From sequence record ON528736: a DNA stretch of 64,000 bases. One strand, given 5' to 3'. Source of the stretch: Shigella phage ESh26. Position 1 is the first letter of the stretch; the number at the start of each line of letters is the position of its first letter. The translations under genes were made by a program, and so were the position numbers. The notes below the pieces were generated by a model. It had not been told where the DNA came from. It did not search any database and saw nothing but the letters and a program-made list of their open reading frames with translations. Shown one piece after another: positions 5,373 to 61,397 of this stretch.

Positions 5373-5582
5373 TTAAATTACATGACTATTTATAATAAAT
5401 TCTTGCGGAACGTTAAAATACCCAATTTTAGTTAATATAACAACATCACCGTTAATAATTACCGGAGAATAATCGGCTGGAGCATTAAACTTCCAATGGG
5501 CTCTAATATTATATCCATCAGAACCAAATGCTCGACTAGCCGGTCTCCCGGCTTTTTGCCATGCATAAAAATCAAATTTCAT
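5373..5582 (-). CDS. hypothetical protein (soc.1 position)
   Basis: 69-aa ORF. Confidence 0.45.
   Translation of the reverse strand: MKFDFYAWQKAGRPASRAFGSDGYNIRAHWKFNAPADYSPVIINGDVVILTKIGYFNVPQEFIINSHVI
5387..5394 (-). promoter_or_regulatory. late promoter TATAAATA for soc
   Basis: Plus-strand tatttata about 30 nt upstream of soc start. Confidence 0.65.
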
Positions 5583-5782
5583 TTTGAATGCTCTACAATT
5601 AATTTTAAGGCTTCTTCATGCACACACTTACCTAATGGTATATGTCCAGTTTTAATTGTGTAAGCTTTGTGGAGCTGATTAGATAAGAGCTCGTATGTGA
5701 GCTCCTTGTCATAATTTTTAAATAGCTGGTCAATACGTTTCTTGTGGGCTTTCTTAAGCTGACGTTTATTTAAACGAGCCAT
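5579..5782 (-). CDS. hypothetical protein (soc.2 position)
   Basis: 67-aa basic ORF. Confidence 0.45.
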   Translation of the reverse strand: MARLNKRQLKKAHKKRIDQLFKNYDKELTYELLSNQLHKAYTIKTGHIPLGKCVHEEALKLIVEHSK

Positions 5783-6300
5783 TAATAACCTCGGTCTTGA
5801 CGAGCGAAGTTTTCAGCATTTTTCAGATAATAAAGTTTAAAGATTTCTTCAGCCGTAAGACCGAGACCTTGGAACATGTTCAGAACGAAATGAAGAATAT
5901 CAATCATTTCGAATTTAATTTCCAACTGGTCTTGTGGAGACAAATCAGTAATTAAAGTTTCACGACGTTCACCATGCTGTGACTTCCAAGGTTTCCATAC
6001 AGCAGATGCATCTTTTTCGCCATTGCTCATACCACCAAGAGAAGTCAGAAGTTCGCGGAATTCATCATCAATATAATCTTTCTGATTACGCAGCCAATCA
6101 ACAACTTCGCCTGCAGTAGCCAAATCATCAGGATGACGGTTATATTCAGGTTTATCTTTAGCTAAACGAACCTGCAGAGATTTCTGCATATCAAGCATAA
6201 CTTGCAGCGGGTCTTTTTCATCACCGAGAATATCCCAGTATTCATTTTGAGCTTTATCAGCGCCTTCAATCAGTTGTGAACATTCGTTAAAGTATGCCAT
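5782..6300 (-). CDS. 56: dCTPase/dUTPase gp56 (MazG-like)
   Basis: Start chosen at internal MAYFNECSQ (172 aa, T4 gp56 size) rather than the 203-aa ORF start. Confidence 0.75.
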   Translation of the reverse strand: MAYFNECSQLIEGADKAQNEYWDILGDEKDPLQVMLDMQKSLQVRLAKDKPEYNRHPDDLATAGEVVDWLRNQKDYIDDEFRELLTSLGGMSNGEKDASAVWKPWKSQHGERRETLITDLSPQDQLEIKFEMIDILHFVLNMFQGLGLTAEEIFKLYYLKNAENFARQDRGY

Positions 6301-6371
6301 TATTTTTCCTTTCAATTCATGGGTTAGTAGATTAATTATACAATAAATATATAAAGCAATAAGGAGGACAT

Positions 6372-7599: not shown

Positions 7600-7764
7600 T
7601 TACTCTTCTTTTTCTTTAGATTCCTCTTTTTTCTTTTTAGGAATCTGTTCAGGACCTTTATTTACTACAGCGCCTGACGTTGTTCCAGTGGAGATATTTT
7701 CAGGATTACCACCTGAATCTCCAGCTACCATATCTTCTTTGATAAATTCTTTATATGTTTTCAT
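7600..7764 (-). CDS. small lysine-rich protein with CTS-like N-terminus
   Basis: 54-aa ORF below table cutoff: MKTYKEFIKEDMVAGDSGGNPENISTGTTSGAVVNKGPEQIPKKKKEESKEKEE. Confidence 0.4.
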   Translation of the reverse strand: MKTYKEFIKEDMVAGDSGGNPENISTGTTSGAVVNKGPEQIPKKKKEESKEKEE

Positions 7765-9045: not shown

Positions 9046-9187
9046 TGAAAGCTTTAACTAGCGCTTTATTAACTTCAGCATATTGAGTAGTAGCCCATTG
9101 AACGTCATCTTTCATCATTGTGATTTCTTTAGTAAACATGCTTTCGTTCTTAAACCACCCCATAAAAACTACCTTTACCAATTCCAT
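9005..9187 (-). CDS. dmd: Dmd, inhibitor of RnlA/LsoA toxins
   Basis: 60-aa ORF directly downstream of gene 41, T4 Dmd size. Confidence 0.8.
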   Translation of the reverse strand: MELVKVVFMGWFKNESMFTKEITMMKDDVQWATTQYAEVNKALVKAFIDDKKVCEVDCRG

Positions 9188-9213
9188 AAAAATCTCCTCA
9201 TTTAACCAACAAG

Positions 9214-9246
9214 ACTACTATACCATAGTCTTGTCGGCTTGTAAAC
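9214..9246 (-). promoter_or_regulatory. early promoter upstream of dmd
   Basis: gtaaac 9241-9246, actata 9216-9221. Confidence 0.5.
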
Positions 9247-11045: not shown

Positions 11046-12201
11046 TTAACTGATCTAGGTCAGTTTCTAAATCAGCTGCTGATTTACTTTTACTTTCTGG
11101 AGATTTAAATTTTTCAACCTTTGAGTTAATCAATTCATCAACTTCAGCTTCAACAATTTCATTACTATCAATAGCACCTAACTGATAAGCACGTTTAATA
11201 GCATCTCGGAATGGCTGATGCTTAAATAAAGGACCCCAGAATGTAGTGCAGTTGGTATCTTTTGCACGCCAAGATTTTTCTTCGCGAATCATCTCACCGG
11301 TTTCTTCGTCAAGAAATTCACGAGCATACCAGCCATTTTTAGGTTTTACCACAAATCCTAATTCTAGAGCCATATCTAACAATCCAGAATAAGGATCGAT
11401 GCCACCGTCAAATTTAACATCAATAAAGAATTTACTTTTTTCTTTAACGGTACGAGATTTTTCTACATTTAGAACAAATTGATACCCCTGAAGATCAGAA
11501 CCATCTTTAATCTGGCGCTTACCGATAATGAATACGGTATCAGCCGAATACATTACGCCTGTACCACCTGTCATCACGGTTTTACTAAACATTTCAATTG
11601 TTTCAATTGTATGGTTAACCGCAACGCATGGAATGTTTTTAATACTAAAATAAGGAGTAACAATACGGAATAATGACTTCAGTGATTTAGCACGAGTCAT
11701 ATCTGCTACAGATTTTTCATTCAAGGCATCTTCCGTTTCTTTCTTAGAAGCCATATTACCGATTGAGTCGATGAATACAATAACTTTTTCACCGCGCTCA
11801 ATAGCTTCAAGCTGATTCACCATATCAATTTTCAGCTGTTCAACTGACTGAATTGGTGTATGAATTACTCGTTCCGGGTCAACTCCCATGGATCGCAAAT
11901 AAGCTGGAGTAATACCAAATTCGCTATCATAAAATAGACAAACCGCGTCAGGATATTTGTTCAAATACGCCGCAACCATAGTCAAAGACATATTTGATTT
12001 AAAGTGTTTAGAAGGACCTGCAAAAATGGTTAAACCAGACTGCATACCACCATCAATCGCACCAGAAATAGCGATATTAAGCATTGGGATTTTTGTACGG
12101 ATTACATCCTTTTCATTAAAGAATTTAGATGCAGTCAGTTCAGCAGTCATTTTAGAAGTGGAAGCTTTAATCAAACGGGATTTTAAATCTGCAATAGACA
12201 T
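11020..12201 (-). CDS. uvsX: RecA-like recombinase UvsX
   Basis: 393 aa; MSIADLKSRLIKASTSKMTAE..., RecA fold motifs. Confidence 0.95.
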   Translation of the reverse strand: MSIADLKSRLIKASTSKMTAELTASKFFNEKDVIRTKIPMLNIAISGAIDGGMQSGLTIFAGPSKHFKSNMSLTMVAAYLNKYPDAVCLFYDSEFGITPAYLRSMGVDPERVIHTPIQSVEQLKIDMVNQLEAIERGEKVIVFIDSIGNMASKKETEDALNEKSVADMTRAKSLKSLFRIVTPYFSIKNIPCVAVNHTIETIEMFSKTVMTGGTGVMYSADTVFIIGKRQIKDGSDLQGYQFVLNVEKSRTVKEKSKFFIDVKFDGGIDPYSGLLDMALELGFVVKPKNGWYAREFLDEETGEMIREEKSWRAKDTNCTTFWGPLFKHQPFRDAIKRAYQLGAIDSNEIVEAEVDELINSKVEKFKSPESKSKSAADLETDLDQLSDMEEFNE

Positions 12202-12278
12202 TCATTTTTTCCATAGGCATCATTATATTTTCCTCACTGGTTAAAGATAGAGTAATTATAACACAATAAATTTAGGCA

Positions 12279-13127
12279 TTAATCGACTGCTATTGGATGA
12301 ATAGCATTAAACTTATGAAACGCTTCTGATTTTTCTTTGCGTGAAACACACATGCGAAGAACCTTTAATGGCTCGTCTTCTTCACCCAACGATTTTCTCT
12401 TTTCGATATTCGATGTTTTCCAACGAGCTTGCTCTGGAAACTCTCTATTGATTTGCTCAAGAGCTCTATTATGTTTTGAATTACTACGAATTGAACTACA
12501 TCCGCCAGGAGCTTGTGCTTTTCCAGATACAACCAGATATTTGAACAAGGCCAAATGCGGATAACCTTGATTAATTAAATTGAGAAATGCATACATATCT
12601 TCGCATAAATCAATTTTTCCATACCCAATTTGTTCTGTCGTGAGTTTTCCAAGGTCATACCATGTATTCGTGAATCCATATGAATTTTCACGATAATTAC
12701 CCCAAGATGAAGTAATTTTAAAAATTGGTAGACGAGCATGGCCATGATAATACCCACAATCCATGGCATCTTCAACGTATTGAATCAATTCATAGAACTG
12801 TTCACGAGTTAATTGATTAATTTTATCTACACAGCGACGATCATCTTTCTTTCGCATTGAACTCATACGAATAGTAGTATCATCGTCAATCATCCAGATT
12901 CGTTGACCTGCATACATATCAGTAATTGCTTTACGAGTACCAGCAATTCCATTAACATCATCAGGAATAGTTATAATTTTGGCTTTAGACCCGTAAGCGT
13001 CATAATAAGCTTTTTCTTCGTGTTCACGTACTACAATATGAGGTTCATAATCAGTCGGAAACATATCAAGGGCAGAAACTGCCCCTACGCGTTGATAGCT
13101 TGGAATTACGAATTGAATCATTTCCAC
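12279..13127 (-). CDS. glycosyltransferase, GT-A-like; candidate beta-glucosyl-HMC-alpha-glucosyltransferase
   Basis: 282 aa with DxD-type motif RIWMIDDDTT; sits where T4 has 351-aa beta-gt. Confidence 0.55.
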   Translation of the reverse strand: MEMIQFVIPSYQRVGAVSALDMFPTDYEPHIVVREHEEKAYYDAYGSKAKIITIPDDVNGIAGTRKAITDMYAGQRIWMIDDDTTIRMSSMRKKDDRRCVDKINQLTREQFYELIQYVEDAMDCGYYHGHARLPIFKITSSWGNYRENSYGFTNTWYDLGKLTTEQIGYGKIDLCEDMYAFLNLINQGYPHLALFKYLVVSGKAQAPGGCSSIRSNSKHNRALEQINREFPEQARWKTSNIEKRKSLGEEDEPLKVLRMCVSRKEKSEAFHKFNAIHPIAVD

Positions 13128-13858
13128 TCACCATTATAATCTTTTTTCACAATATGAGTTTCGCCAGTATTCCACCAATGATCAACCAAGTAAAAATGAC
13201 GAGAATATACATGAAGACTTCCAACATTCCATATAATAGAACCTGCTTTATACTGACGAGTTGAATCACCTGCATTCAAATCAGATACTAATTTATCTAG
13301 TACGTATTTTTGCCATGCATAATCATTACGGAATCCGAAGACAACGTCATTTGAACGCATGCTCACTACTGCATTGACTTTCTTATCACGAATCAGGTAC
13401 TGTACTGTATTCGTACACATGAAATCTGACATACCATCTTTATTGTAGTCAAACTGCATGGATGGACGAGTATAAATCATGATACCGCGTCGAGAATCAG
13501 GATTTTGACCAAGTTCAGCTAAACACATATCATATTGGGCATAGTTATCTTCTGACCAGATGGCCCAACCATAATTCGAATTAATTTCGCCTTTAGAAGA
13601 TGCTACCTGTTGCCAAATCTTCGGTGTTTCACCTGGAATATCTTTAACAAACAAACTTTTAGATTTATACCATTCAAGTTCACGCTGAATGTATTCATCA
13701 TTAAGAGCGCCAAAAATAAATGGTTCATCTGCTACAAATGATGCGCCAATAATTTCAATAGTTTTAACGCCAGTTTTATCAACTACGAAATCTTTTTCCT
13801 TTAATGCAAGCCCCAAATGAAGACGGATTTCTTCAACTGTCATAGAGTCACTAATCAT
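13118..13858 (-). CDS. 42: dCMP hydroxymethylase gp42
   Basis: 246 aa; thymidylate-synthase-like; T4 gp42 size and sequence. Confidence 0.95.
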   Translation of the reverse strand: MISDSMTVEEIRLHLGLALKEKDFVVDKTGVKTIEIIGASFVADEPFIFGALNDEYIQRELEWYKSKSLFVKDIPGETPKIWQQVASSKGEINSNYGWAIWSEDNYAQYDMCLAELGQNPDSRRGIMIYTRPSMQFDYNKDGMSDFMCTNTVQYLIRDKKVNAVVSMRSNDVVFGFRNDYAWQKYVLDKLVSDLNAGDSTRQYKAGSIIWNVGSLHVYSRHFYLVDHWWNTGETHIVKKDYNGEWK

Positions 13859-14661: not shown

Positions 14662-14919
14662 TCAAATACAAGCAGTAATTACTCCAGTAGTGCTTACACA
14701 GGTATTACCTAATTGAACACCAAGCGTTCCATTAGTATTCATATGAAGATTATCATCAATTTTTGTTGATACTTTACCATTCATGTGAATAACAGTATTA
14801 GATTCAATCACATTCTGAGTGTCATTTTCAATATCAATAAATGGAACAGCTGCTAATGCAACTAGAACAACTGCTAATGCAACTAAACACGCTGCTAAAC
14901 AACCATAAACAATTTTCAT
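14662..14919 (-). CDS. small membrane protein
   Basis: Start moved to MKIVYGCLAACLVALAVVLVALAAV because promoter 14952-14985 and terminator lie inside the longer ORF; GGAG RBS. Confidence 0.5.
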   Translation of the reverse strand: MKIVYGCLAACLVALAVVLVALAAVPFIDIENDTQNVIESNTVIHMNGKVSTKIDDNLHMNTNGTLGVQLGNTCVSTTGVITACI

Positions 14920-14951
14920 TTTATTCTCCAAATCCGTATCAGTTGATAGTT

Positions 14952-14985
14952 GTATAGTACCATGGAAGAACAGAGATGTAAACCG
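14952..14985 (-). promoter_or_regulatory. early promoter, conserved cassette copy
   Basis: gtaaac 14978-14983, atagta 14954-14959; near-identical to copies at 41413-41446 and 56596-56630. Confidence 0.6.
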
Positions 14986-15066
14986 TTTTGTGAAAAAATT
15001 TTTAATGAATTTACAGGACCTAGAATCATCTATTTTTCCTAAGTATAGATTTATATTACTTGTATG

Positions 15067-15087
15067 AAAAAGGGACCCGGAGGTCCC
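15067..15087 (-). terminator. intrinsic terminator after gene 43
   Basis: Hairpin gggacc-cgga-ggtccc with U-run. Confidence 0.65.
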
Positions 15088-15100
15088 TAGATTTATTCTA

Positions 15101-17877: not shown

Positions 17878-18114
17878 TTAAATTTCTATTGTACGACGCG
17901 ATATAACGGACTTGCCATCTTTATTTGTGGTTTTGATAATCGCATGAAATGCGAGCTGGTGCGGGTAAACTAATCGTTGGAATTCTTTTTGGAATTCTAT
18001 TTGTTTATCTTCCGGGAGGTCAAAAACCAGTTGGGTAGAAGACAGACCATATGTTTGTTTTAGATTTTCGAATATTAGAAAAGCTTCGGTAAACTGAATC
18101 TCTGATTGTGTCAT
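17878..18114 (-). CDS. hypothetical protein
   Basis: ORF between regA and 43; start set at internal MTQSEIQF to avoid overlap. Confidence 0.4.
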   Translation of the reverse strand: MTQSEIQFTEAFLIFENLKQTYGLSSTQLVFDLPEDKQIEFQKEFQRLVYPHQLAFHAIIKTTNKDGKSVISRRTIEI

Positions 18115-18124
18115 ATAATTTGCC

Positions 18125-24779: not shown

Positions 24780-25980
24780 ATTTTGTAATAATGTCAAACT
24801 GTTCTTTAAAGCAGAAGCTTGAATCTTGATGCTGATACAAAAATTCATAAGCTTTTTCGCGTTCACGGTCATAAAGAGCTCGGTCAGATGACAGTTCTTT
24901 AATACGCTCAAATGTTGATTCCATGTCATTTTCATCAAACCAAACGATACCGCTATCATGAGAAATTAACGGAGTATTATCAACACGGAATTTTAAATTT
25001 TCGCCAGTAGATTTCCAAAATACCGGAATTGTTCCGCACGCACCAAGCTCGAGATGAGTATATTCTAAAGAACGTTGTAGATATTTTTTGTCCAACTTAC
25101 TCAACTGATAACCAAATCCGGATTTACTCATGCGTTCAAGCATTTCGCTATTTACATAACGGTCGAGAATTTGCGTTGGCAAATTAGGAGCAATTTTAAT
25201 TTGGTCTACTTGATGAAGACGATAATACTCGTATGGAATTCCTTTTTCTTTAATAGGAATGAACGCTGGAGAACGTTCCAGACCTTCCATAATAGTACTT
25301 AGTCCAGCAGGTTTAAGATGTTTTTCGTGAAAATCAAACATCTGATAAAAGCCTTTCCATGTAGTCGTACGACCAATCCAACGGTTGACATTCATGTTAA
25401 TTTCAGAAACATCTTTCCAGTATGTTGATCGAACTTTCGCAATATCCATAGGAGGCTGAAAGTTGTATACGGTCGGTGCTTCTTCAATATCATCAAACAG
25501 AGAAACTGTTTCTGGATACCATTCTTTCATCAGAACTTTATTAAAATCACCATTATCAGAATGACTAAAAATAACATCAGCTCGGCGAACAGTTTCTTCT
25601 AATCCCAAATTTCGACGCAAAGAAAGAGAAGAATGGTCATGTTGATAAACTACAACACGAACCGAAGGTTTAATGTTATCAATAATTTTTTTATAGTTAT
25701 TAATAGTGTCTTCTTCGACTGAAGTAGCAGGAACTGAATTGATAATTAGAATATCACAATCATTTACCAGCTTAAGTGTTTTATCGTATTCTTTTGCCAA
25801 TAAAACCGGAATTGAAAATGATTTATAATCATGCGCGCAATTACGTGTAAATGATTTATCTTTAGCATAAACCAAAGTTACTTCATGACCATTTTTAATA
25901 AACCAATCACGCTGCTCAAGAGAAAATTTAGTTACGCCGCAACCTTCAAGACCTCGAGCCATAAAAATGCATACTTTCAT
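24778..25980 (-). CDS. agt: DNA alpha-glucosyltransferase
   Basis: 400 aa; N-terminus MKVCIFMARGLEGCGVTKFSLEQRDWF as in T4 AGT. Confidence 0.9.
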   Translation of the reverse strand: MKVCIFMARGLEGCGVTKFSLEQRDWFIKNGHEVTLVYAKDKSFTRNCAHDYKSFSIPVLLAKEYDKTLKLVNDCDILIINSVPATSVEEDTINNYKKIIDNIKPSVRVVVYQHDHSSLSLRRNLGLEETVRRADVIFSHSDNGDFNKVLMKEWYPETVSLFDDIEEAPTVYNFQPPMDIAKVRSTYWKDVSEINMNVNRWIGRTTTWKGFYQMFDFHEKHLKPAGLSTIMEGLERSPAFIPIKEKGIPYEYYRLHQVDQIKIAPNLPTQILDRYVNSEMLERMSKSGFGYQLSKLDKKYLQRSLEYTHLELGACGTIPVFWKSTGENLKFRVDNTPLISHDSGIVWFDENDMESTFERIKELSSDRALYDREREKAYEFLYQHQDSSFCFKEQFDIITK

Positions 25981-26030
25981 TTAATATCCTCATTGTTTTG
26001 GTTTATTTTACCAAAAATTTATAAAGCAAT

Positions 26031-27480: not shown

Positions 27481-27552
27481 CTCTTAGCTCAATTCATAGA
27501 TCTATTATATCATAATATTTGAAGATCTATCTTAAAGCATAGAGGATATCAG

Positions 27553-27822
27553 TTATCTAAGTAAGCAGTATGCTTGGAATACTTTCTCCATCATCTTTTT
27601 AAATTCATGAATATCTATATAATGACTAGTTAAATCAGCATGATATAAAAAGTCTAAAAACTTTTCATGTGTGCTAGCATATTCACTTTCATTTAATTCA
27701 GAAACATGGCTTTCCCAATATCCAACACCAGTCTTATTTGGGAAAAATGAAATTTTCATGTATTGGTCAACATAGAAAATTCCATAATTTTCAATAGTAA
27801 TAGAAATATTAATAAATTTCAT
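27553..27822 (-). CDS. hypothetical protein (55.x)
   Basis: 89-aa ORF. Confidence 0.45.
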   Translation of the reverse strand: MKFINISITIENYGIFYVDQYMKISFFPNKTGVGYWESHVSELNESEYASTHEKFLDFLYHADLTSHYIDIHEFKKMMEKVFQAYCLLR

Positions 27823-30019: not shown

Positions 30020-30490
30020 TTAATCATGTTTCCACACCCCATCGGTATTTGACCAAAGTCGCTGATTATCTGATCCTCGCCACAGCTTTTTGGTCGGAAG
30101 ATTTTTCTCATACTTCCCATCAATAATAACATCAACATATTTAAGCATTTCTAGTTGTTTAATATCTTCAAACTTATATCCTGTCCACAACCAAATGCTT
30201 TTATTTGGATAAAGATTTTTTACTGTTTGAACCACAGAGTGAATAACATCTCGGTTATCGGGATAGAGAGGGTCTCCTCCAGTTATAGTTAATCCTTCTA
30301 TATAATCATTATTCAAACATTCAATTAATTGTTCTAGTGTTTCACCAGTGAATGGAACGCCATTTCTAGCGTTCCATGTTGATTTATTATAACACCCTTC
30401 GCATTTATGCAAACAACCTGTAACGAAAAGAACGACCCTGCATCCAGGGCCATTCACAAAATCGCAAGGATAAAATCTATCATAATTCAT
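30020..30490 (-). CDS. nrdG: anaerobic ribonucleotide reductase activase NrdG
   Basis: 156 aa; radical-SAM cluster CDFVNGPGCRVVLFVTGCLHKCEGC. Confidence 0.9.
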   Translation of the reverse strand: MNYDRFYPCDFVNGPGCRVVLFVTGCLHKCEGCYNKSTWNARNGVPFTGETLEQLIECLNNDYIEGLTITGGDPLYPDNRDVIHSVVQTVKNLYPNKSIWLWTGYKFEDIKQLEMLKYVDVIIDGKYEKNLPTKKLWRGSDNQRLWSNTDGVWKHD

Positions 30491-32304
30491 TGGTGTTTAA
30501 CCCTATGCATGATTTCTTTATTTTTGCCGAGATTAAATCCGCGTTCGTTCGGATTTCCCAAATAACCACAAGTTCTTCTTATTGTGTTCATCTTTTTAGG
30601 ATCAGTTTCTCCACAAATAGAACAAACAAATCCGTTTTCAGTAGGAGTCATTTCATGGGTACTTCCACATGTAAAACATTTATCTACTGGCATATTAACG
30701 CCAAAATAATCTAAATGTTGTGCAGCATAATCCCATACAGCCTCAAGACCTTTTAGGTTATTTTTCATATCAGGAAGTTCAACATAAGAAATGTGACCGC
30801 CTGTCGCAATGAAATGATATGGTGCTTCGCGAGAAATCTTTTCAAACGGAGTGATATTTTCTTCTACTGAAACATGGAAACTGTTAGTGTACCATCCTTT
30901 ATCAGTAACGTCTTTTACACTTCCATATTTTTCAGTATCAAGTTTACAGAAGCGATAACAAAGGTTTTCAGCAGGTGTAGAATACAAACTAAAAGCAAAA
31001 CCGGTTCTTTCAGTCCACTGTTTAAGACGAGCATTCATTTTAGTCAAAATTTCCTGTCCAATATCACGACCGACAAGAATATTCAATTCGTGAATACCAA
31101 TGTATCCTAGGGACACTGAACTTCTACCGTTTTTAAATAACTCAATTATGTCGTCATCAGGTTTAAGACGAACCCCGAATGCACCTTCTTGGTAAAGAAT
31201 AGGAGCAACAGTCGCTTTAACTCCTTTTAAGGAACTAATTCTACACATCAAAGCTTCAAAACACAAATCCATTCGTTCATTGAACAATTCGGTAAATTTC
31301 TGTTCATTGAACTGTGTTCCAATATAAGAATCTAATGCGATACGAGGAAGATTCAGTGTTACAACACCGAGATTATTACGTCCATCAAGAATTTCATTAC
31401 CAGTCGAATCTTTCCATACACTCAAGAAACTACGGCAACCCATTGGAGAAACAGGAATAGATGAACCGGTGATAGCTTTATTATTCTTAACTGAAATAAT
31501 ATCAGGATACATTCTTTTGCTTGCACACTCTAGAGCAAGCTGCTTAATATCATAGTTCGGATCGTCTTTATAAAGATTAACGCCTTCTTCAACGAACATA
31601 ACAAGTTTAGGGAAAATAGGAGTTATCCCATCGCGACCAAGGCCTTTAATACGATTTTTCAGAATTGCTTTCTGAATCATTCGTTCAGTCCAGTCAGTTC
31701 CCGTACCAAACGTAATTGTCACAAAAGGCGTTTGCCCATTTGAACTAAAGAGAGTATTTACTTCATATTCATAAGCTTGGAATGCATCGTATACGTCTTT
31801 TTCTGTTTTAGATTGAGCGTAATTCAACGCATCAGCGATTTGCCATTTTTCTGCATCCTCAATATGTTTTGCATAGGTGCGTTTAACATAAGGAGAAAGT
31901 ACTTTATCTACATTAGCAAAAGTCGTTCCGCCATATTGATGAGAAGCAACCTGCGCAGTAATTTGTGCCATAATTGCAGTAGCAACGCCGATTGATTTAG
32001 GAGTTTCAATCTGTGCATTACCGAGCTTAAATCCGTTTTCAAGCATTCCTTTTAAATCTACTAAACAGCAATTAGTAAATGGAAGAGCAGGGGAATAATC
32101 AATATCATGGAAATGGATAATTCCGCTTTCATGTGCTTTCATAATAAAAGACGGGACCATATTTTTGGCAATGTGTTTAGACACAATACCAGCCATAAGG
32201 TCCCGTTGAGTTGGAAAAACACGAGAATCTTTATTAGCATTCTCGTTCAAAAGGTCTTTATTAGTTTTATGAATCAATCCTTCAATTTCTTTTTCAATTG
32301 TCAT
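30487..32304 (-). CDS. nrdD: anaerobic ribonucleoside-triphosphate reductase NrdD
   Basis: Uninterrupted 605-aa ORF; C-terminal zinc ribbon and glycyl radical region. Confidence 0.95.
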   Translation of the reverse strand: MTIEKEIEGLIHKTNKDLLNENANKDSRVFPTQRDLMAGIVSKHIAKNMVPSFIMKAHESGIIHFHDIDYSPALPFTNCCLVDLKGMLENGFKLGNAQIETPKSIGVATAIMAQITAQVASHQYGGTTFANVDKVLSPYVKRTYAKHIEDAEKWQIADALNYAQSKTEKDVYDAFQAYEYEVNTLFSSNGQTPFVTITFGTGTDWTERMIQKAILKNRIKGLGRDGITPIFPKLVMFVEEGVNLYKDDPNYDIKQLALECASKRMYPDIISVKNNKAITGSSIPVSPMGCRSFLSVWKDSTGNEILDGRNNLGVVTLNLPRIALDSYIGTQFNEQKFTELFNERMDLCFEALMCRISSLKGVKATVAPILYQEGAFGVRLKPDDDIIELFKNGRSSVSLGYIGIHELNILVGRDIGQEILTKMNARLKQWTERTGFAFSLYSTPAENLCYRFCKLDTEKYGSVKDVTDKGWYTNSFHVSVEENITPFEKISREAPYHFIATGGHISYVELPDMKNNLKGLEAVWDYAAQHLDYFGVNMPVDKCFTCGSTHEMTPTENGFVCSICGETDPKKMNTIRRTCGYLGNPNERGFNLGKNKEIMHRVKHQ

Positions 32305-39419: not shown

Positions 39420-39947
39420 TTATGCGAGTACCGTCTTTAACCGTTCTTCAAACTTCCGAAGAGTATTTTGGCGTTCAGCTCTTTGCTTTTTGTAAGTTTC
39501 AATACGCTCTGAAATGAGAGTGTATCGTTCATTTACCGATTCTTTCATAAAATCAGGAATTTCACGAGAAGCTTTAATCTCGTCAAATTTATCAATAACA
39601 GCTTGCTCTTCAGCAATTAAATTATCATACATTAAAATATCTTTCTTGATGAACTCAATATCTTCTTGAGTTACACGAGATAATTTAGATGCTTTATCCT
39701 TTTTGTACTGTTCGTTAGTATCACGAGACCAGTGTAATGCACGATTTTTATTCGTATTTTTGTAAATTTCTACAATACCGATCTCATCAATAATAACGAT
39801 CCAATTCCAACGGGATTTGTAAATTTGTCCTCCATCAACAGTGATTTCACCTCCGATTGAGATGTCATTAAAGAACTTGCTTTGTGCTTCAGATTTAAAT
39901 TTACCATCGTTATAATTTACCAAGTTGAAAATATCTTTAGCGTTCAT
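39420..39947 (-). CDS. hypothetical protein
   Basis: 175-aa ORF after promoter 39974-40007. Confidence 0.5.
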   Translation of the reverse strand: MNAKDIFNLVNYNDGKFKSEAQSKFFNDISIGGEITVDGGQIYKSRWNWIVIIDEIGIVEIYKNTNKNRALHWSRDTNEQYKKDKASKLSRVTQEDIEFIKKDILMYDNLIAEEQAVIDKFDEIKASREIPDFMKESVNERYTLISERIETYKKQRAERQNTLRKFEERLKTVLA

Positions 39948-39973
39948 TTTGTGTTCCTCCGTAGTTGATAGTT

Positions 39974-40007
39974 GTATAGTACCACAGAGGAACAGTCTTG
40001 TAAACCA
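39974..40007 (-). promoter_or_regulatory. early promoter, cassette copy
   Basis: gtaaac 40000-40005, atagta 39976-39981. Confidence 0.55.
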
Positions 40008-40322
40008 CTAAAAGAAACTTCTTTCACAATTTTTTCCACTGAACCAGGCGCTCACTGCTTTCTTAGTCTCAGGAGCAGTGTTATCCATAAACCATTCAAA
40101 GGCAGCCTTTTTATGATTCTGGAGGGCTTCTCGGGCTTTAATCTGCTCACGGTCTATTAACACTAACATATGAGCCTTTCTTGACACCATGGGCTTCTTA
40201 TGATTTTTTGAATACTCCCAGTCATTTGTCCATCGCATTGTCGTTGCGAACTGAAATACTGCTTCTTTAATTTTAGTTTCGTAAATTTCACGAGCCTTTG
40301 AGTATAACATCATTACCTCCAT
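40008..40322 (-). CDS. hypothetical protein
   Basis: 104-aa ORF. Confidence 0.45.
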   Translation of the reverse strand: MEVMMLYSKAREIYETKIKEAVFQFATTMRWTNDWEYSKNHKKPMVSRKAHMLVLIDREQIKAREALQNHKKAAFEWFMDNTAPETKKAVSAWFSGKNCERSFF

Positions 40323-40411: not shown

Positions 40412-41380
40412 TTATTTCAGAAGAGTAACCTCAGCGATTTCTTCCCAACCGTTTTTGTCGGTCATAATAAAGTCAGCAAGATAAAGAGCAGTACGCAGTG
40501 AAACATTGCGTAAACGGTTAACATTAACTTTCATCCATGATAATGCTTTATAAGTTTCTTCATCAGAAAGACCGCGCTTTTGCATCATGTCAGTTGAAAG
40601 AATAACATCTTCAACCCTGACCATAATTTCTTCATTAGTGTGAACACCCAAATCTAAATAAACCGAGCGGGACACTAATGCTTGTAAATGTGGAGCAAGT
40701 TTAGTACCACGGTCTAATTCGCGGTCAATGTCAACGTTTGTGATAAAAACAATCGTTCCTTTAAATTCAAACTCACGCTCAATGCCTTTTTCTTCTAAGT
40801 AAGAAGACGCAGTGCTCCAGCAGACTTTACGGGTCTCTCCAGTGTCCAGAGCGGCTTTTAGAAGATTAAGAATGTCCATATCAGAGAAAACATCCACATC
40901 GTCAATCAAAAGGACAGAATTCTCTTCACGATTATTCCAAAGCTGCTCATAAAGACCAATACCAGAGATTTTACCATTAATGCTTTTATATTCAATGTAT
41001 CCAATATCATTTGCTTTATTTAAAGCTTTATCTAAAGAATACGTTTTACCAATACCTGCTGCTCCTGAGATAATTAATGAACGAATATTTCCGTTAATAA
41101 TACCATTCGTCATCATTCCCATAACATTAAATCTTTTATTAATGCGGGTTTTCATATCTTCATACGATTCTTTAACTTCTTCAACTTTTACACCATCATA
41201 TGAAATATCTGATTTGTAAACCCAAACACCGCGACGTTTACCGTCAATTTCAACAAAAACTTTACCATCTCCTTGCGCATCTACCGGAGCATTATCTGGG
41301 AACCATTCGCCTAAGAGCTCAAAAGTTCCAGAGATTTCTTTACCGAAGTAGATACCCTTATTGATAGTTACAGTTTTCAT
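40412..41380 (-). CDS. AAA+ family ATPase
   Basis: Walker A GAAGIGKT, Walker B VLLIDDVDV, sensor-1-like FITN; start at MKTVTINKG after conserved promoter-RBS cassette. Confidence 0.6.
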   Translation of the reverse strand: MKTVTINKGIYFGKEISGTFELLGEWFPDNAPVDAQGDGKVFVEIDGKRRGVWVYKSDISYDGVKVEEVKESYEDMKTRINKRFNVMGMMTNGIINGNIRSLIISGAAGIGKTYSLDKALNKANDIGYIEYKSINGKISGIGLYEQLWNNREENSVLLIDDVDVFSDMDILNLLKAALDTGETRKVCWSTASSYLEEKGIEREFEFKGTIVFITNVDIDRELDRGTKLAPHLQALVSRSVYLDLGVHTNEEIMVRVEDVILSTDMMQKRGLSDEETYKALSWMKVNVNRLRNVSLRTALYLADFIMTDKNGWEEIAEVTLLK

Positions 41381-41412
41381 TTTATTCTCCAAATCCGTAT
41401 CAGTTGATAGTT

Positions 41413-41446
41413 GTATAGTACCATAAAGCTTTATGCTTGTAAACTG
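41413..41446 (-). promoter_or_regulatory. early promoter, cassette copy upstream of AAA ATPase
   Basis: gtaaac 41439-41444, atagta 41415-41420. Confidence 0.6.
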
Positions 41447-41474
41447 TTCTGTGAAAAAATTTTGAAATAAAAAA

Positions 41475-41493
41475 GGGAGCCCGAAGGCTCCCT
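41475..41493 (-). terminator. intrinsic terminator after nucleotidyltransferase gene
   Basis: gggagcc-cgaa-ggctccc preceded by a-run on plus strand. Confidence 0.65.
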
Positions 41494-42508: not shown

Positions 42509-42978
42509 TCAGCCTTATATTCAATAACAGGACATACTTTAGCTTTACGTGCTTTTAAAAATTCGACGATAATAGATTTCTTGGGTTGAATAGGAGGTAA
42601 ACCTTTATACGCTCTATCAATATTTTCTACATGTAAAGCATAATCCTTTTTCCATTTATAATCTTTATATTTTTCATGCAGTTGTGCAGGAATAACAAAT
42701 GAACCAATAATAAGTAAAACAAGCAAAATGGCAAGTATAAATGCTGATGGAATAAGAGTCCATAAACTACCAAAAATAAGCCATTTCTGTATGATTTCTG
42801 CGCAGATAATAGTTAGACCTGCGAGCATAGTACATCCGAATAAAGAAACGAAAAATGTAGGGATAACAATAGACCAAAAATACGCGCACAGTGTCTTAGG
42901 TCGTTTCCATTCGTCGTTAAACATTTTGAATAATTTATAATGCCAAGAGTTTTCATTAATAACCATAATTATAATCAT
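42505..42978 (-). CDS. membrane protein
   Basis: 157 aa, three hydrophobic segments. Confidence 0.5.
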   Translation of the reverse strand: MIIIMVINENSWHYKLFKMFNDEWKRPKTLCAYFWSIVIPTFFVSLFGCTMLAGLTIICAEIIQKWLIFGSLWTLIPSAFILAILLVLLIIGSFVIPAQLHEKYKDYKWKKDYALHVENIDRAYKGLPPIQPKKSIIVEFLKARKAKVCPVIEYKAE

Positions 42979-43496
42979 CCTTTCATTGAAGGTGTAACAG
43001 TTGTTAAATACTTAATCATAGCTTCAGCTTCTGATTTTGATAATGAAATTTCTCCATTGTTTTGACGAATAGAAATAAAATCCGGATGACGGTCACCACC
43101 AGCTTTTAAAATACACATATAAGTATCAGTTTCATCTTCAATATCTGAAATAATTGAAGCAGTTCCACATGAATGTGGTTTTTGATAAATCAATGCAGCT
43201 TTTCTTCCACCGTTTGACTGTTCATAAACTTTTAACACATCAAACAAATCGCTTCTTTTATCAATAGCTAAGATGTTGTTTTCATCTTCAATGTTAAATC
43301 CTTCGGATACTTCATAAAGTGTCACCCATAAATCACCAATATCAATAACAGCGTTCACCTTTCCATGATTTTCAAGCGTATGACAAATTTTCTTAATTTC
43401 ATCATAACTCATTTTAATAATATCATCTCCTTGAATAAGAAAGATGTCATTTTTAAATTCAACACGAATTAAACCACTTCCACTTGAAATAAACAT
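42975..43496 (-). CDS. hypothetical protein, tandem paralog A
   Basis: 173 aa; C-terminus SKSEAEAMIKYLTTVTPSMKG resembles next gene. Confidence 0.5.
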   Translation of the reverse strand: MFISSGSGLIRVEFKNDIFLIQGDDIIKMSYDEIKKICHTLENHGKVNAVIDIGDLWVTLYEVSEGFNIEDENNILAIDKRSDLFDVLKVYEQSNGGRKAALIYQKPHSCGTASIISDIEDETDTYMCILKAGGDRHPDFISIRQNNGEISLSKSEAEAMIKYLTTVTPSMKG

Positions 43497-44069: not shown

Positions 44070-44204
44070 AATTACATACTCCTTTGAATAATATCAATAA
44101 TGTTGTTCACCAAATTATACGTAAACATTGGGTAATTATATTGAATCATCACATACACAACAAACAAAACTTTCATTCTCTTCTCCTTGGCAGTTGACAA
44201 GATT

Positions 44205-44234
44205 ACTATACCATAACCTTGCCAACTTGTAAAC
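44205..44234 (-). promoter_or_regulatory. early promoter
   Basis: gtaaac 44229-44234, actata 44205-44210. Confidence 0.5.
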
Positions 44235-44836: not shown

Positions 44837-44988
44837 GCCATATGAGTTGCAGCTTCATCACACATACTATAGCGTTTCTTAAGAAATTCTACAAGTTCTT
44901 CACTAGTAACTTCATCCATGTCGACGAAAAAATCACCATTAATGATGACGTAGATATTTCCTTCTTGATTAAGTGCTTCAATTTTCAT
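44800..44988 (-). CDS. hypothetical protein
   Basis: Start at MKIEALNQ (GAGGAG RBS); longer ORF contains promoter. Confidence 0.4.
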
Positions 44989-45013
44989 GATGTTCTCCTC
45001 TTTATCCGATAGT

Positions 45014-45048
45014 TGTATAGTATCACAGCTCAAATGGAAAGTAAACCG
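45014..45048 (-). promoter_or_regulatory. early promoter, cassette copy
   Basis: gtaaac 45041-45046, atagta 45016-45021. Confidence 0.55.
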
Positions 45049-45061
45049 GTAAAATGAAAAA

Positions 45062-45079
45062 AGTCTCCCGAAGGAGACT
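45062..45079 (-). terminator. intrinsic terminator after rI.1-position gene
   Basis: agtctcc-cgaa-ggagact with a-run. Confidence 0.65.
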
Positions 45080-48723: not shown

Positions 48724-49185
48724 TCATTGAGTTTTAATTACTGCTTTAGAAGCCTTTCCTGGTAAACGACGACTGTTGATAATTGCCATCCTACATTGAA
48801 GCGACGGGTCTTTGAACTTCGCATTAGGTTTACAAACTGTAAATCCAAGCCAAAGATTTCCATCTGTGATTTCTAAACGTCCAGGGCGATATTCAACCCC
48901 ATCAATAAAATCCTCGTCAATGTCAGGACGCGGAGGCATACTCAGGAATTCATTAACTTCTAAAACATGGTCTTTTATTTTGTGGAATAATTCAAAAACA
49001 TATGTCTCATCAATCTCCCGTTGAATTGCACGATCAAGAAGATGCTGAGAATATTTTAGATGAAACGATGAGACCCCTGCTGCTTTTGATGCCTCACGAA
49101 TCTCATTGTTAATTTGACGAAACTCCGACTCAAAGTGACGACGAAGCTTATTTCGACGGATAAAAACTTCTGTGTTGATAGTCAT
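48724..49185 (-). CDS. regB: endoribonuclease RegB
   Basis: 153 aa, T4 RegB size and position; early promoter 49213-49242. Confidence 0.7.
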   Translation of the reverse strand: MTINTEVFIRRNKLRRHFESEFRQINNEIREASKAAGVSSFHLKYSQHLLDRAIQREIDETYVFELFHKIKDHVLEVNEFLSMPPRPDIDEDFIDGVEYRPGRLEITDGNLWLGFTVCKPNAKFKDPSLQCRMAIINSRRLPGKASKAVIKTQ

Positions 49186-49212
49186 GTTATTCTCCTCTTA
49201 ACTGATAGAAAA

Positions 49213-49242
49213 ATTATACCACAGTCAAGAGGAAAAGTAAAC
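49213..49242 (-). promoter_or_regulatory. early promoter upstream of regB
   Basis: gtaaac 49237-49242, attata 49213-49218. Confidence 0.55.
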
Positions 49243-51789: not shown

Positions 51790-51877
51790 AAGATCAGTAA
51801 AAGATTCAGCAATAATTTGAGAATTAATAGCTGGCTGCTTCAGTGATAAATTCTTGATATGTTTTCATGTGTTTCCT

Positions 51878-52294
51878 TTAAATGTAAATATTTTTACCGT
51901 AGTATTTATACCAGTGTGGCTTCATTAAAATTTTTTCATCGAGTCGTTGTTGACTCAATTTAATAGCAGATTTGCATGGATTATAATCATTTTTCCATTC
52001 TGCTGGAATATCGCTGATGTCAGGAACTTCAGTATCTTTTATACTAAACCCACGTTTTAAGCATTCCGTTATAATGTCTGATTGACGCTTTCGCAAAAAT
52101 TCTAACTTATCGTAAAAGAACGTAACATGACCAGAACCTAAAATAAACTCAGAAGATATTTTAAAATCTTTAACCCGCTTACCATTTGCCACGTGTTTAC
52201 GAACTATACCAAAAACACGTGGCAATTCACGGTATTCTGCGATTAAATGTTGATCAGCAAGTTCAGATACTAAAGTCAAATTAATACGAGTCAT
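51878..52294 (-). CDS. denV: endonuclease V (pyrimidine dimer glycosylase) DenV
   Basis: Start at [17 protein letters not shown] (138 aa, GGAGG RBS); promoter 52321-52350. Confidence 0.9.
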
Positions 52295-52320
52295 TTTATC
52301 CCTCCAAGTAACTGTGAATA

Positions 52321-52350
52321 ATACTATCACAATTCTAGGAGAAAGTAAAC
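52321..52350 (-). promoter_or_regulatory. early promoter upstream of denV
   Basis: gtaaac 52345-52350, atacta 52321-52326. Confidence 0.55.
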
Positions 52351-55836: not shown

Positions 55837-56235
55837 TTATTTCATTTTTGCGAGACAGATTTCATTGGCTTCCCATTGAGCTTGCTTAATAATAGCTTTG
55901 GATACAGGAACCTTTTGACCATAAGTTTTTGACGTTGAGAGAACAATATATTTGTTTGCCTCATTATGCCAACCCCATGATTCTTCGCCATGAGTACCTT
56001 TAACTACAGCTGACACCTCAACAGAGCAGCCATCAGAACTAATCTTGGTGTCTACAATCCATTCATTTCTCTCGACAGCTTCATTTTCAGACCTCATTTT
56101 TTCTTCATACACGGCGGCCCAATCAGTTTTTGTCAAGCTTAAACTAAGAGCTTTCTCTAATTCTTTGGCAGCTTTTTGTTGTTCGGGTGTTAATGAATTA
56201 TATAACTCTCGCATTTCTTTATCTTCAATATTCAT
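55837..56235 (-). CDS. hypothetical protein
   Basis: 132-aa ORF. Confidence 0.45.
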   Translation of the reverse strand: MNIEDKEMRELYNSLTPEQQKAAKELEKALSLSLTKTDWAAVYEEKMRSENEAVERNEWIVDTKISSDGCSVEVSAVVKGTHGEESWGWHNEANKYIVLSTSKTYGQKVPVSKAIIKQAQWEANEICLAKMK

Positions 56236-56290
56236 TATGTTCTCCTCAAGTTACAGGCTCATAATATCTAAATCATGAGCCTATGTAAAC

Positions 56291-56554
56291 TTATTTCATA
56301 TTATTGAAATATTCTTCTGCGATTTCGTCGTTATCATGGTAAACTTTAGAAGACAGTTTAACATAACCTTCAGCTGTGAACATATTAATCACAACTTTTA
56401 CAGTATACCACTGACCATCTTCATTACCCATTACTGCGTAAGTTTCAAACATCGGATGGTCAGGACCGATAACTTTAATATCATTCACTGTACGACCGAA
56501 ATCTTCTGAAACGCATTTCATAAAGAAGTTGAACAGTTCGCCGTAATTATCCAT
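56291..56554 (-). CDS. hypothetical protein
   Basis: Start at MDNYGELFNFF after promoter-RBS cassette 56596-56630. Confidence 0.45.
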   Translation of the reverse strand: MDNYGELFNFFMKCVSEDFGRTVNDIKVIGPDHPMFETYAVMGNEDGQWYTVKVVINMFTAEGYVKLSSKVYHDNDEIAEEYFNNMK

Positions 56555-56595
56555 TTCATTCTCCAAGTTGTTTTTCTGTATCAGTAGTTGATAGT

Positions 56596-56630
56596 TGTAT
56601 AGTACCATGGAAGAACAGGGATGTAAATAG
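56596..56630 (-). promoter_or_regulatory. early promoter, cassette copy
   Basis: gtaaat 56623-56628, atagta 56598-56603. Confidence 0.55.
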
Positions 56631-56751
56631 TTTTGTGAAAAAATTTTTAGGGAATTATGGGGCAGGGAGGGGCAATTAAAAGGTAGGATAATATATTATA
56701 AAGGGTATAAACTAAATGATGCCTAGAGATGCCCAGAAAGGCCTAGATACC

Positions 56752-56777
56752 AAAAAGCCCTATCATTTAGATAGGGA
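56752..56777 (-). terminator. intrinsic terminator after IPIII-like gene
   Basis: a-run then gccctatc-attta-gataggg. Confidence 0.55.
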
Positions 56778-56784
56778 TTTAAAA

Positions 56785-57348: not shown

Positions 57349-57438
57349 TTAAAATCCTTGAAATAATTTATCGGTTGGTTATTAATTATTTATTACTTTG
57401 TTACTATCCGTAGCAGCATTCTCTATGTGATTCAAACC

Positions 57439-57466
57439 AAAAAGCCCCAACCTTTCGGCTGGGGTT
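57439..57466 (-). terminator. intrinsic terminator after IPII-like gene
   Basis: aaaaa then gccccaacc-tttc-ggctgggg (GNRA-type loop on transcript). Confidence 0.6.
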
Positions 57467-57473
57467 AAGAATG

Positions 57474-57947: not shown

Positions 57948-57987
57948 CTTATTTCCTGTTTTAATTCGTGGATTTAATATACTACTA

Positions 57988-57995
57988 TATTTATA
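57988..57995 (-). promoter_or_regulatory. late promoter TATAAATA for IPII-like gene
   Basis: Plus-strand tatttata 41 nt upstream of start 57947. Confidence 0.6.
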
Positions 57996-58779: not shown

Positions 58780-58783
58780 TAAT

Positions 58784-60555: not shown

Positions 60556-60709
60556 TAGCTATTAAACCAATTAAAAATGCTACTACAAGTGAAAAAACAT
60601 TTTCTGCTGTAGTCAATAATCCGCATATAAATCCAACAAACATTGAAAAACTAAAAGCGGAAGCAGAAATTGCAATAGCAACATTTCGAATTAATTCACA
60701 ACGTTTCAT
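60524..60709 (-). CDS. small membrane protein
   Basis: Start at MKRCELIRN after promoter 60736-60769. Confidence 0.4.
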   Translation of the reverse strand: MKRCELIRNVAIAISASAFSFSMFVGFICGLLTTAENVFSLVVAFLIGLIAIVMDKISKGE

Positions 60710-60735
60710 TTTATTCTCCTCAGTAGTTGATGAGA

Positions 60736-60769
60736 TAATAGTATCACTACCCCATCTAAAAGTAAACTT
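60736..60769 (-). promoter_or_regulatory. early promoter
   Basis: gtaaac 60762-60767, atagta 60738-60743. Confidence 0.5.
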
Positions 60770-61001
60770 ATTTTTTACGAAAAATTGATTTATTTTCTGC
60801 TGCCCATTTTTCAATAACTGCAGCAGGACCAGTAACAACAATTTTATCACCGTAATCTTCTGCGGCGAGTTGACCGAAATTATCTAATGCATCACGAAGA
60901 ACTCCATAAGGCATTTCACCCATTTTATCTTTCTTGCCAGTGTAAATAAACTCAACTTTTACATCAGAAGATTCAGCGATAAACTCTTTGAAAGTTTTCA
61001 T
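60768..61001 (-). CDS. internal-protein-like small protein
   Basis: Start at MKTFKEFIAESSD (CTS-like); promoter 61034-61067. Confidence 0.55.
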   Translation of the reverse strand: MKTFKEFIAESSDVKVEFIYTGKKDKMGEMPYGVLRDALDNFGQLAAEDYGDKIVVTGPAAVIEKWAAENKSIFRKK

Positions 61002-61033
61002 TTTGATTTCCATTTGATTTTGTTTTGATAGGG

Positions 61034-61067
61034 TAATAGTATCACTACTAAAACCCTGTGTAAACAA
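61034..61067 (-). promoter_or_regulatory. early promoter upstream of IP-like gene
   Basis: gtaaac 61060-61065, atagta 61036-61041. Confidence 0.5.
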
Positions 61068-61077: not shown

Positions 61078-61335
61078 TTATTTTAAATCTTCTAATCGTT
61101 TCTTCATCTTAGAACCATTTTTAGCAATTTCTCCTGCATCGGAGCATAACGCTAAAAGTGCTTTAACTTTAGTTTGGTCTCCTTTAAAAGATGAAGGATC
61201 GACTGCAGCAGCAAGTTCTTTAATACGAGAGAAAAGACGCTCAGCTTCAGCTAAAGCCATTCCAAGCTTTACTTCCATACCGTGAGAAGATTCAGTGATA
61301 GTAGTTTTTGTAGCAAACTCTTTGAAAGTTTTCAT
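61078..61335 (-). CDS. internal-protein-like small protein (ipI position)
   Basis: 85 aa; MKTFKEFATKTT; promoter 61364-61397; adjacent to 57B. Confidence 0.55.
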   Translation of the reverse strand: MKTFKEFATKTTITESSHGMEVKLGMALAEAERLFSRIKELAAAVDPSSFKGDQTKVKALLALCSDAGEIAKNGSKMKKRLEDLK

Positions 61336-61363
61336 TTTATTTTCCTAATTAATTTTGATGAGA

Positions 61364-61397
61364 TAATAGTATCACTACCTCATCAGCATGTAAACAA
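61364..61397 (-). promoter_or_regulatory. early promoter upstream of IP-like gene
   Basis: gtaaac 61390-61395, atagta 61366-61371. Confidence 0.5.

Follow-up and report, generated by a model that had tools for sequence, protein, structure and literature searches.

The locus described here lies between gene 43 and imm.1 of Shigella phage ESh26 (ON528736), within a window of 64 kb (the whole stretch of 64,000 nucleotides that was analysed). It comprises, on the minus strand, a terminator-like hairpin after gene 43 (15071..15088, a terminator in the SA20RB record), an early promoter with its leader (14917..15011, referred to here as copy 1) whose -35 box lies 88 nt downstream of that hairpin, and an 85-aa open reading frame (14662..14919; phrog_4189, unknown function) that lies between copy 1 and imm.1 and is missing in T4. 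Two further units of closely similar sequence are found on the same strand: copy 2 (41378..41472), the early promoter and leader of nrdC.10, is located between nrdC.11 and nrdC.10, and copy 3 (56552..56656) is the early promoter and leader of e.8.

To our knowledge, the early region of a T4-type phage is the best studied of any phage, and the window is recognisable from its sequence as the early region of a Tequatrovirus (T4-like phage). All of its early genes lie on the minus strand. The ∼3 kb around this locus is 98.8% identical to Escherichia phage vB_EcoM_SA20RB, the closest relative, and 496 of the 547 matching records, from Tequatrovirus, align over at least 80% of the ∼3-kb query length. 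T4 (AF158101) is colinear with the entire window from ∼10.2 to 76 kb, most blocks having 91–98% identity. The homing-endonuclease genes segA, mobB, mobC and I-TevII are present in T4 and missing from the window, as is dam; unrelated sequence is substituted for the T4 segments with segF, mobD and segB, and b-gt has been swapped for a beta-glucosyl-HMC-alpha-glucosyltransferase gene (SA20RB annotation). In the T4 comparison these differences fall at 5394–6361, 12189–13136, 25971–25996, 30470–30490, 31766–31769, 42509–43478 and 58337–59207. The tRNA cluster at 58707–59724 gives 11 tRNA matches in Rfam, one of them barely over threshold, compared with 8 in the T4 record. Two extra segments of ∼250 bp, each about one small ORF, lie between regA and gene 43 (17878–18124) and between gene 55 and 55.1 (27547–27808), neither with an adjoining early-promoter cassette.

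Read along the minus strand, all three copies present the same order of elements, namely an A/T block, the -35 GTTTAC (for which copy 3 has ATTTAC), a spacer of 18 nt with TGG at its end, TACTAT, ACAACTATCAAC, GGAG and ATG. In copy 1 the UP (A/T) block occupies ∼14984–15011, the -35 GTTTAC 14978–14983, the 18-nt spacer 14960–14977, TGG with the -10 box 14954–14962 (TACTAT at 14954–14959), the element GGAGAATAAAA, which holds the Shine-Dalgarno (SD) sequence and a RegB consensus, 14919–14929, and the ATG 14917–14919. The corresponding positions in copy 2 are 41439–41444 for GTTTAC, 41415–41420 for the -10, 41380–41390 for GGAGAATAAAA and 41378–41380 for the ATG, with the palindrome CATAAAGCTTTATG inside the spacer; in copy 3 they are 56623–56628 for ATTTAC, 56599–56604 for the -10, 56561–56564 for GGAG and 56552–56554 for the ATG. 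The tract AAAAATTTTTTCACAAAAC lies 5′ of the -35 in all three, in keeping with an A/T-rich UP element (-40 to -60), and in the sigma-70 convention each copy reads TTTACA-17-TACTAT with TG, as do the -35, -10 and TGn elements of a T4 early (Pe) promoter. T4 early promoters are of the UP/-35/TGn/-10 type, with extra consensus regions (Hinton 2010), and 20 minus-strand sites upstream of ORFs in the window share GTTTAC-N18-TAnnnT in register.

T4 carries all three units, at imm.1 (27080), nrdC.10 (55384) and e.8 (70696), with few bases different from those of the window. Copy 1, the promoter between gene 43 and imm.1, is the orthologue of T4 Pe26.4 and is labelled a T4-type early promoter in the SA20RB record. 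A T4 transcriptome paper gives map unit 27,044 as the start of the Pe26.4 transcript. On the T4 orthologue of copy 1 this is 7 nt past the -10; the start of copy 1 is therefore predicted at ∼14947, giving a leader of ∼28 nt. By their sequence, then, the repeats are T4-type early promoters with short leaders that make up one subfamily of paralogues. The original prediction had described them as promoter plus 5′UTR units, which agrees with the T4 early-promoter architecture, the SA20RB annotation and the Pe26.4 orthology, and its three main copies (14917–14995, 41378–41455 and 56552–56635) are all present on the minus strand, although the unit is not ∼80 nt long but about 95–105 nt (14909–15011 for copy 1). 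Several of its details need adjustment: a -35 GTTTAC with an 18-nt spacer is correct for copies 1 and 2, but copy 3 has ATTTAC and a longer leader; the -10 box that it gave as TATAGT is there, but this is the plus-strand reading of what the coding (minus) strand reads as TACTAT after TGG; and in place of a ribosome-binding site of the form AATAAAGAGG the trio has GGAG(AATAAAATG), and GGAG then AATAAA.

The resemblance between the copies is far closer than their class requires. A 21-nt core, TGGTACTATACAACTATCAAC, occurs exactly four times in the 64 kb (14942, 39964, 41403 and 56587), where ∼0.01 matches would be expected even with up to three mismatches allowed. Identity was scored in register, from -30 of the -35 as far as +25 past the -10, in place of free-end-gap alignment; on this measure the pairs of the trio score 0.78, 0.79 and 0.64. 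The 20 early promoters of the window, compared in all 190 pairings, have a median of 0.45 (sd 0.08), and composition-matched random sequence gives 0.29. The excess sits at positions without promoter-consensus constraint, in the spacer and the leader. Copies 1 and 3 have 17 of 18 spacer bases in common together with the upstream block, out to 15011 and 56656 respectively (93% over 71 nt), and copies 1 and 2 have the whole leader in common through ATGAAAA, which takes in the start codon and four bases beyond it (98% over 55 nt). The likeness of copy 1 is thus a mosaic, its spacer going with copy 3 and its leader with copy 2. The copy 1 sequence also matches 547 phage records at 3865 places, or ∼7 per genome.

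Five diverged copies had been listed alongside the trio, and all five are early-promoter sites, but only that at 39947–40010 is clearly above the generic range, with a mean identity of 0.61 to the trio and the exact TGGTACTATACAACTATCAAC core; the other four score 0.50–0.54, against 0.35–0.54 for unlisted early promoters. The proviso attached to that list, that the copies might be no more similar than generic promoters, is accordingly false for the trio and 39947–40010 in the pairwise in-register comparison and nearly true for the remaining four. The closest diverged copy is the nrdC.8 early promoter (39945..40005). The others, likewise on the minus strand, are the mobD.5 early promoter (44986..45079, with its -35 at 45041–45046 and a terminator hairpin at 45062–45079), the trna.4 early promoter (60707..60767, with a perfect GGAGAATAAAA at 60709–60719), which forms the left boundary of the replaced ipI segment, and two early promoters that precede internal-protein-type ORFs: 61001..61065, before the ORF at 60768–61001 (MKTFKEFIAE...), and 61335..61395, before the ORF at 61078–61335, the latter being the orthologue of the T4 ipI promoter. 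Those at 60707, 61001 and 61335 form a separate subfamily within the internal-protein locus. The earlier list omitted comparable promoters, among them those at 8743 and 29283. The promoters at 5070 (mrh.2) and 45046 (mobD.5) have a terminator hairpin and an upstream block, CGGGAG(T/A)C TTTTTTCATTTTACCG GTTTAC TTTCCA, in common, and constitute a paralogous pair 40 kb apart.

The genes led by the cassettes encode products of unrelated PHROG families of unknown function (phrog_4189, 1754, 1250, 2678, 2274 and 3024), and homology stops 8–10 nt into the ORF, so that the repeats cannot be explained as the duplicated 5′ end of related downstream proteins. Among the cassette-led proteins, Pfam hits were obtained from nrdC.10 only, all below threshold. 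These sub-threshold matches of nrdC.10 (40412–41380, 322 aa) are to AAA/STAND-type P-loop NTPases (AAA_14, E = 6e-5; nSTAND3, E = 5e-4).

A structured 5′UTR or riboswitch-like element was considered for the shared leader and rejected: in the three copies the leaders fold like shuffled sequence (z -0.04, +0.86 and +0.55), and an Rfam search of the window found no family at the leaders, 11 tRNAs being the only matches. A different property of the leader end stands out. The SD sequence GGAG lies 6–7 nt ahead of the ATG in the ∼28-nt leader, and the consensus for a strong RegB/S1 cleavage site is GG*AGRAYARAA (Durand et al. 2006, as quoted in the review by Uzan and Miller, PMC3014915). GGAGRAYARAA has exactly three matches in the 64 kb, all on the minus strand and all in cassettes listed earlier, at 14919–14929 (copy 1), 41380–41390 (copy 2) and 60709–60719 (11/11), where ∼0.4 matches would be expected and three were reached in 1 of 100 shuffles; copy 3 has 10 of the 11 positions (GGAGAATGAAA). 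In copies 1 and 2 the consensus lies in an unstructured translation-initiation region, as the sequence definition of a strong site specifies. Compared with the established RegB/S1 sites, copies 1 and 2 and the 60709 leader agree at 11/11 positions at the SD and are candidate sites from sequence. The motA gene is a documented RegB target (Hinton 2010; PMC3014915), and the motA genes of relatives have a promoter of the same family in front. Given that the SD of copies 1 and 2 is within a perfect RegB/S1 match, early inactivation of these mRNAs by the phage endoribonuclease is probable, and the shared leader end is probably a RegB site that would restrict the mRNAs of copies 1 and 2 to the opening minutes of infection.

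A stem-loop had been proposed as part of the cassettes. Terminator hairpins lie at varying distances upstream of the trio; inside the promoters of the trio, folding against shuffles revealed no stem-loop (z -0.05, +0.92 and -0.95). In addition to the hairpin that follows gene 43, there is a terminator hairpin after nrdC.11 (41474..41493, minus strand), situated 29 nt ahead of the copy 2 -35 and with its T-run directly adjoining the UP region of that copy, and a terminator-like hairpin (56758..56776, minus strand) about 130 nt upstream of copy 3. The last of these is one of three similar hairpins (56758–56776, 57445–57464 and 58002–58025) that bound a 1.2-kb insertion relative to T4.

Many early promoters outside the trio have an inverted repeat centred on the -10, the spacer forming its 5′ arm and the initial transcribed region its 3′ arm. 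Such repeats were recorded on the minus strand at 39940–40005, 49178–49242, 9180–9246, 52290–52350, 44170–44234, 56225–56290 and 61328–61395; their folds have z-scores from -3.4 to -5.4, none of 200 shuffles being as stable (z -3.6 for that of 61335..61395). The 3′ arm extends as far as the SD at the promoters of regB, nrdC.8 and denV. At nrdC.8 the spacer is complementary to the SD region of the same promoter, and the resulting hairpin (-22.5 kcal/mol, z -5.3) has the -10 in its loop. The mean energy of spacer-leader duplexes is -10.3 kcal/mol for cognate pairs versus -7.3 kcal/mol for non-cognate pairs (permutation P<5e-5). Five stem substitutions between the window and T4, in the hairpins at 9246, 44234 and 61395, preserve pairing, four of the five via G-U; in the 40005 hairpin one terminal pair is broken between the window and T4. 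Since both arms would occur in read-through transcripts only, the -10-centred hairpin could serve to silence translation or to attenuate read-through.

Comparison of copy 1 with its T4 orthologue indicates where its mosaic character may have come from. The copy 1 spacer starts ATCTCTG, resembling ATCCCTG at e.8, where the T4 orthologue has AAGACTG, and its leader resembles that of nrdC.10 in lacking an ACT and ending in AATAAAATG, where the T4 orthologue has ACTACT and the end AATGAAATG. The differences between copy 1 and the T4 orthologue therefore fall in exactly the e.8-type spacer and nrdC.10-type leader patches. The loss of ACT from the leader could reflect slippage in ACTACT and not conversion; for the clustered three-base patch in the spacer a slippage account is harder to sustain. 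The family was surveyed in IMG/VR (21 stretches from a handful of contigs) and in a single metagenome scan, and in the contigs from both one and the same core stands ahead of at least 13 different genes, motA and frd.3 among them, with spacer and leader types that do not track the locus. This part of the mosaic evidence comes from metagenome contigs, in which assembly chimeras at repeats are conceivable, whereas the frd.3 result comes from isolate genomes. There, an alignment of six isolate Tequatrovirus genomes from the gene 32 terminator to frd.3 (L069–L074) is near-identical throughout except for the 15-nt spacer, which occurs in four unrelated types: nrdC.10-type in T4 and Lutter, e.8-type in SV76 and U115, motA-type in Pu-Krd-SF6, and in ESh29 a fourth type that is resident at the promoter of an 87-aa ORF. 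These types differ at 9–11 of 15 positions and must for that reason be replacements, not mutations. The invariant blocks on either side of the spacer would be the obvious homology anchors.

Genes also come and go at the cassettes. The 85-aa ORF is carried by a 261-bp insertion relative to T4, the right junction of which lies at ATGAAAAT of copy 1, and a 10-nt direct repeat, ATGAAAATTG, is found at both ORF junctions (14919 and 14651); in other genomes imm.1 stands directly behind the copy 1 promoter, without the ORF. In one relative (L018), three additional small ORFs and two more promoter cassettes lie between the copy 2 core and the SD of nrdC.10, both junctions of the insertion being inside copy 2. 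Both ipIII and ipII are missing from the window, where an ipIII-type promoter is fused to the SD of denV, and T4 has three similar promoters in this ipIII/ipII-denV region. The e.7 and ipI segments are replaced relative to T4, between flanking promoters. Upstream of copy 3, between e.8 and the rnaC/tRNA region, the 1.2-kb insertion (56776–57993) contains a pair of internal-protein-like ORFs, with a near-identical terminator hairpin behind each. A repeat family, D6, encodes the internal-protein capsid-targeting leader (MKTY/F-x-EF...) and starts five ORFs (7600–7764, 56785–57348, 57474–57947, 60768–61001 and 61078–61335); a sixth copy (51826–51868) runs into a stop after 14 codons and appears to be a truncated internal-protein gene downstream of denV.

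Taken over the whole window, 5 of the 38 breakpoints relative to T4 lie inside cassettes compared with 1.3 expected (P about 0.012, uniform-position permutation), and for breakpoints within 100 nt of cassettes P is about 0.07 by the same permutation. The enrichment is weak, because the uniform null ignores gene boundaries and whole-gene indels must end in intergenic DNA. Most indels between the window and T4 concern homing-endonuclease genes, or segments holding them, and not cassettes. The near-verbatim trio occupies conserved orthologous positions in T4 and hundreds of relatives, and its members are not themselves mobile. They lie 26–42 kb apart and flank essential replication genes, so that crossing-over between them in one genome would be lethal and their likeness cannot serve deletion or mini-circle formation. 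For the trio, conversion together with capture or loss of adjoining genes is plausible, as opposed to excision between copies. More generally, recombination and gene shuffling at cassettes are supported by these sequence comparisons, and the proposal that the cassettes flank accessory genes and can serve modular shuffling fits both the published PeSL (promoter-early stem-loop) model and the indel and spacer comparisons with relatives.

The explanation that best accounts for these observations as a whole, to which we assign a probability of roughly 0.88, is that the repeats belong to a T4-type early-promoter subfamily whose members are alike by common descent and short-patch exchange and which form preferred junctions for accessory genes, as in the PeSL model. 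Host sigma-70 RNA polymerase would bind the UP block, the -35 GTTTAC and the extended -10 TGG-TACTAT, and would start ∼7 nt downstream of the -10, to judge from the T4 orthologue; the ∼28-nt unstructured leader would then present the GGAG SD before the ATG. The identity of spacers and leaders would derive from common descent and repeated short-patch exchange among paralogues, the invariant blocks TTTTTTCACAAAACnGTTTACA and TGGTACTATACAACTATC acting as homology anchors, with the spacer between the anchors, and the leader with the gene downstream, exchanged between loci and co-infecting phages. Homologous recombination functions of the phage itself are presumably responsible. With spacer, leader and gene exchanged in this way, the cassettes would be junctions at which small accessory genes are preferentially inserted, deleted or replaced, by the published PeSL mechanism.

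Convergence could in principle account for part of this resemblance: if selection pushed all strong early promoters and leaders to one optimum, there would be no need for shared descent, exchange or a role in recombination. The 20 early promoters do share an extended consensus (median 0.45 versus 0.29 for random sequence), and consensus regions beyond the -35, TGn and -10 are on record for such promoters (Hinton 2010). However, the trio is identical at positions that vary freely, in 17 of 18 spacer bases of copies 1 and 3 and in the full leader of copies 1 and 2, and the 15-nt spacers that alternate at one locus, with 9–11 differences, each equal the spacer of another locus, which point mutation under selection cannot give; we consider convergence alone very improbable. 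Just as improbable is a dedicated mobile or site-specific element, integron attC-like or MITE-like, that a specific recombinase or nuclease would recognise. Modules of gene size that bring their own promoter have indeed been inserted at the same short sequences, and the relevant passage of Arbiol et al. 2010 left open “homologous or site-specific recombination”, but there are no terminal inverted repeats and no target duplication beyond the 10-nt microhomology, hundreds of genomes have the copies at orthologous positions, and the junctions vary, from the ATG (85-aa ORF) to just past the -10 core (L018) and between the -10 and SD (denV), as homology or microhomology would allow.

The remaining alternative, which we regard as unlikely but less so than either of these, is that the TGGTACTATACAACTATCAAC block and the leader are a co-regulation signal, bound by a phage or host factor that switches a small regulon (the imm.1 region, nrdC.10, e.8, nrdC.8, motA, frd.3 and others), recombination being a by-product. 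Invariance of the core at no fewer than 13 loci in many genomes, while flanking spacers and leaders vary, would be expected of such a signal, as would the agreement of the leader 3′ end with the RegB/S1 site and the presence in the family of motA, itself a documented RegB target. Against this, the loci were found by searching for the core, which makes its invariance partly circular, no known factor binds TGGTACTATACAACTATCAAC, and the leader is unstructured; a shared signal is in any case compatible with descent and exchange among promoter paralogues, and does not compete with them exclusively.

Returning to the preferred explanation, the repeats are real and the phenomenon is already known and ordinary. 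What matters is that regulatory cassettes organising T-even early transcription can be flagged from sequence alone, and that these cassettes double as gain and loss junctions for small accessory genes, often with host-range or anti-defence functions. The local additions made here are the assignment of genes to cassettes, the 85-aa ORF at the imm.1 promoter, the cassette-bounded loss of ipII and ipIII with replacement of ipI, and the spacer swaps between paralogous promoters. Wholesale swapping of a spacer between two invariant anchors is not described in the PeSL papers or the literature searched, and is an elaboration of the PeSL model. We would put forward only tentatively, as a doubtful extension, a two-anchor exchange system in which UP/-35 and TGn/-10/initial-transcribed blocks of ∼20–25 nt let the 15-nt spacer swap among at least 13 loci apart from leader and gene, re-tuning early expression if the spacer tunes output. 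Should promoter strength, Alt/ModA responsiveness or the read-through hairpin depend on which spacer is present, early genes would in effect be re-tuned by recombination.

Set beside known systems, the cassettes differ from integron attC sites and mobile repeats: neither a fixed recombination point nor inverted termini are found, and junctions vary between events. For T-even phages, Repoila et al. reportedly described in 1994 a conserved 5′ cassette at the internal-protein (IP) loci. The promoters listed at 61001–61067 and 61335–61397 resemble it in preceding ORFs with MKTFKEF capsid-targeting leaders in the replaced ipI locus, whereas the genes behind the three main copies are not IP genes, and these copies are of another sequence subfamily. 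Correspondence with the T4 Pe promoters of imm.1 (Pe26.4), nrdC.10 and e.8 is close, in orthologous position, orientation and sequence as well as in UP, GTTTAC, TGn and -10 elements; the differences are that copy 1 of the window drives an extra 85-aa ORF before imm.1 and has an e.8-type spacer patch and an nrdC.10-type leader, and that copy 3 has ATTTAC.

Another close counterpart is the system of PeSL cassettes of T4-type phages, which are associated with modular gene shuffling (Arbiol et al. 2010, PMC2839356; Comeau et al. 2014, PMC4122927). PeSL mini-circles were demonstrated experimentally in RB49/phi1, with crossovers between the -10 and the ATG, and the choice between “homologous or site-specific recombination” was left open in that account (PMC2839356). 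Comparative genomics extended the model to the T4/PST pair, with the consensus TTTACW-N17-TAYWAT, in a paper that also recalls, in the part consulted, the earlier IP-locus observation (Repoila et al. 1994; PMC4122927). The copies described here share with PeSLs an AT-rich 5′ region, a sigma-70-like early promoter and an SD with ATG at the 3′ end, small-ORF indels between close relatives with junctions in the cassette, and stem-loops nearby. They differ in that the trio has no stem-loop in the promoter, its terminator hairpins lying 29, 88 and 130 nt upstream, and in that its members, 26–42 kb apart, are too distant for viable mini-circle excision. Stem-loops that overlap the -10 do occur at other promoters of the window (40005, z -5.3; 61395, z -3.6), and these -10-centred hairpins resemble the “stem-loop overlapping the -10 box” of the RB49/phi1 PeSLs.
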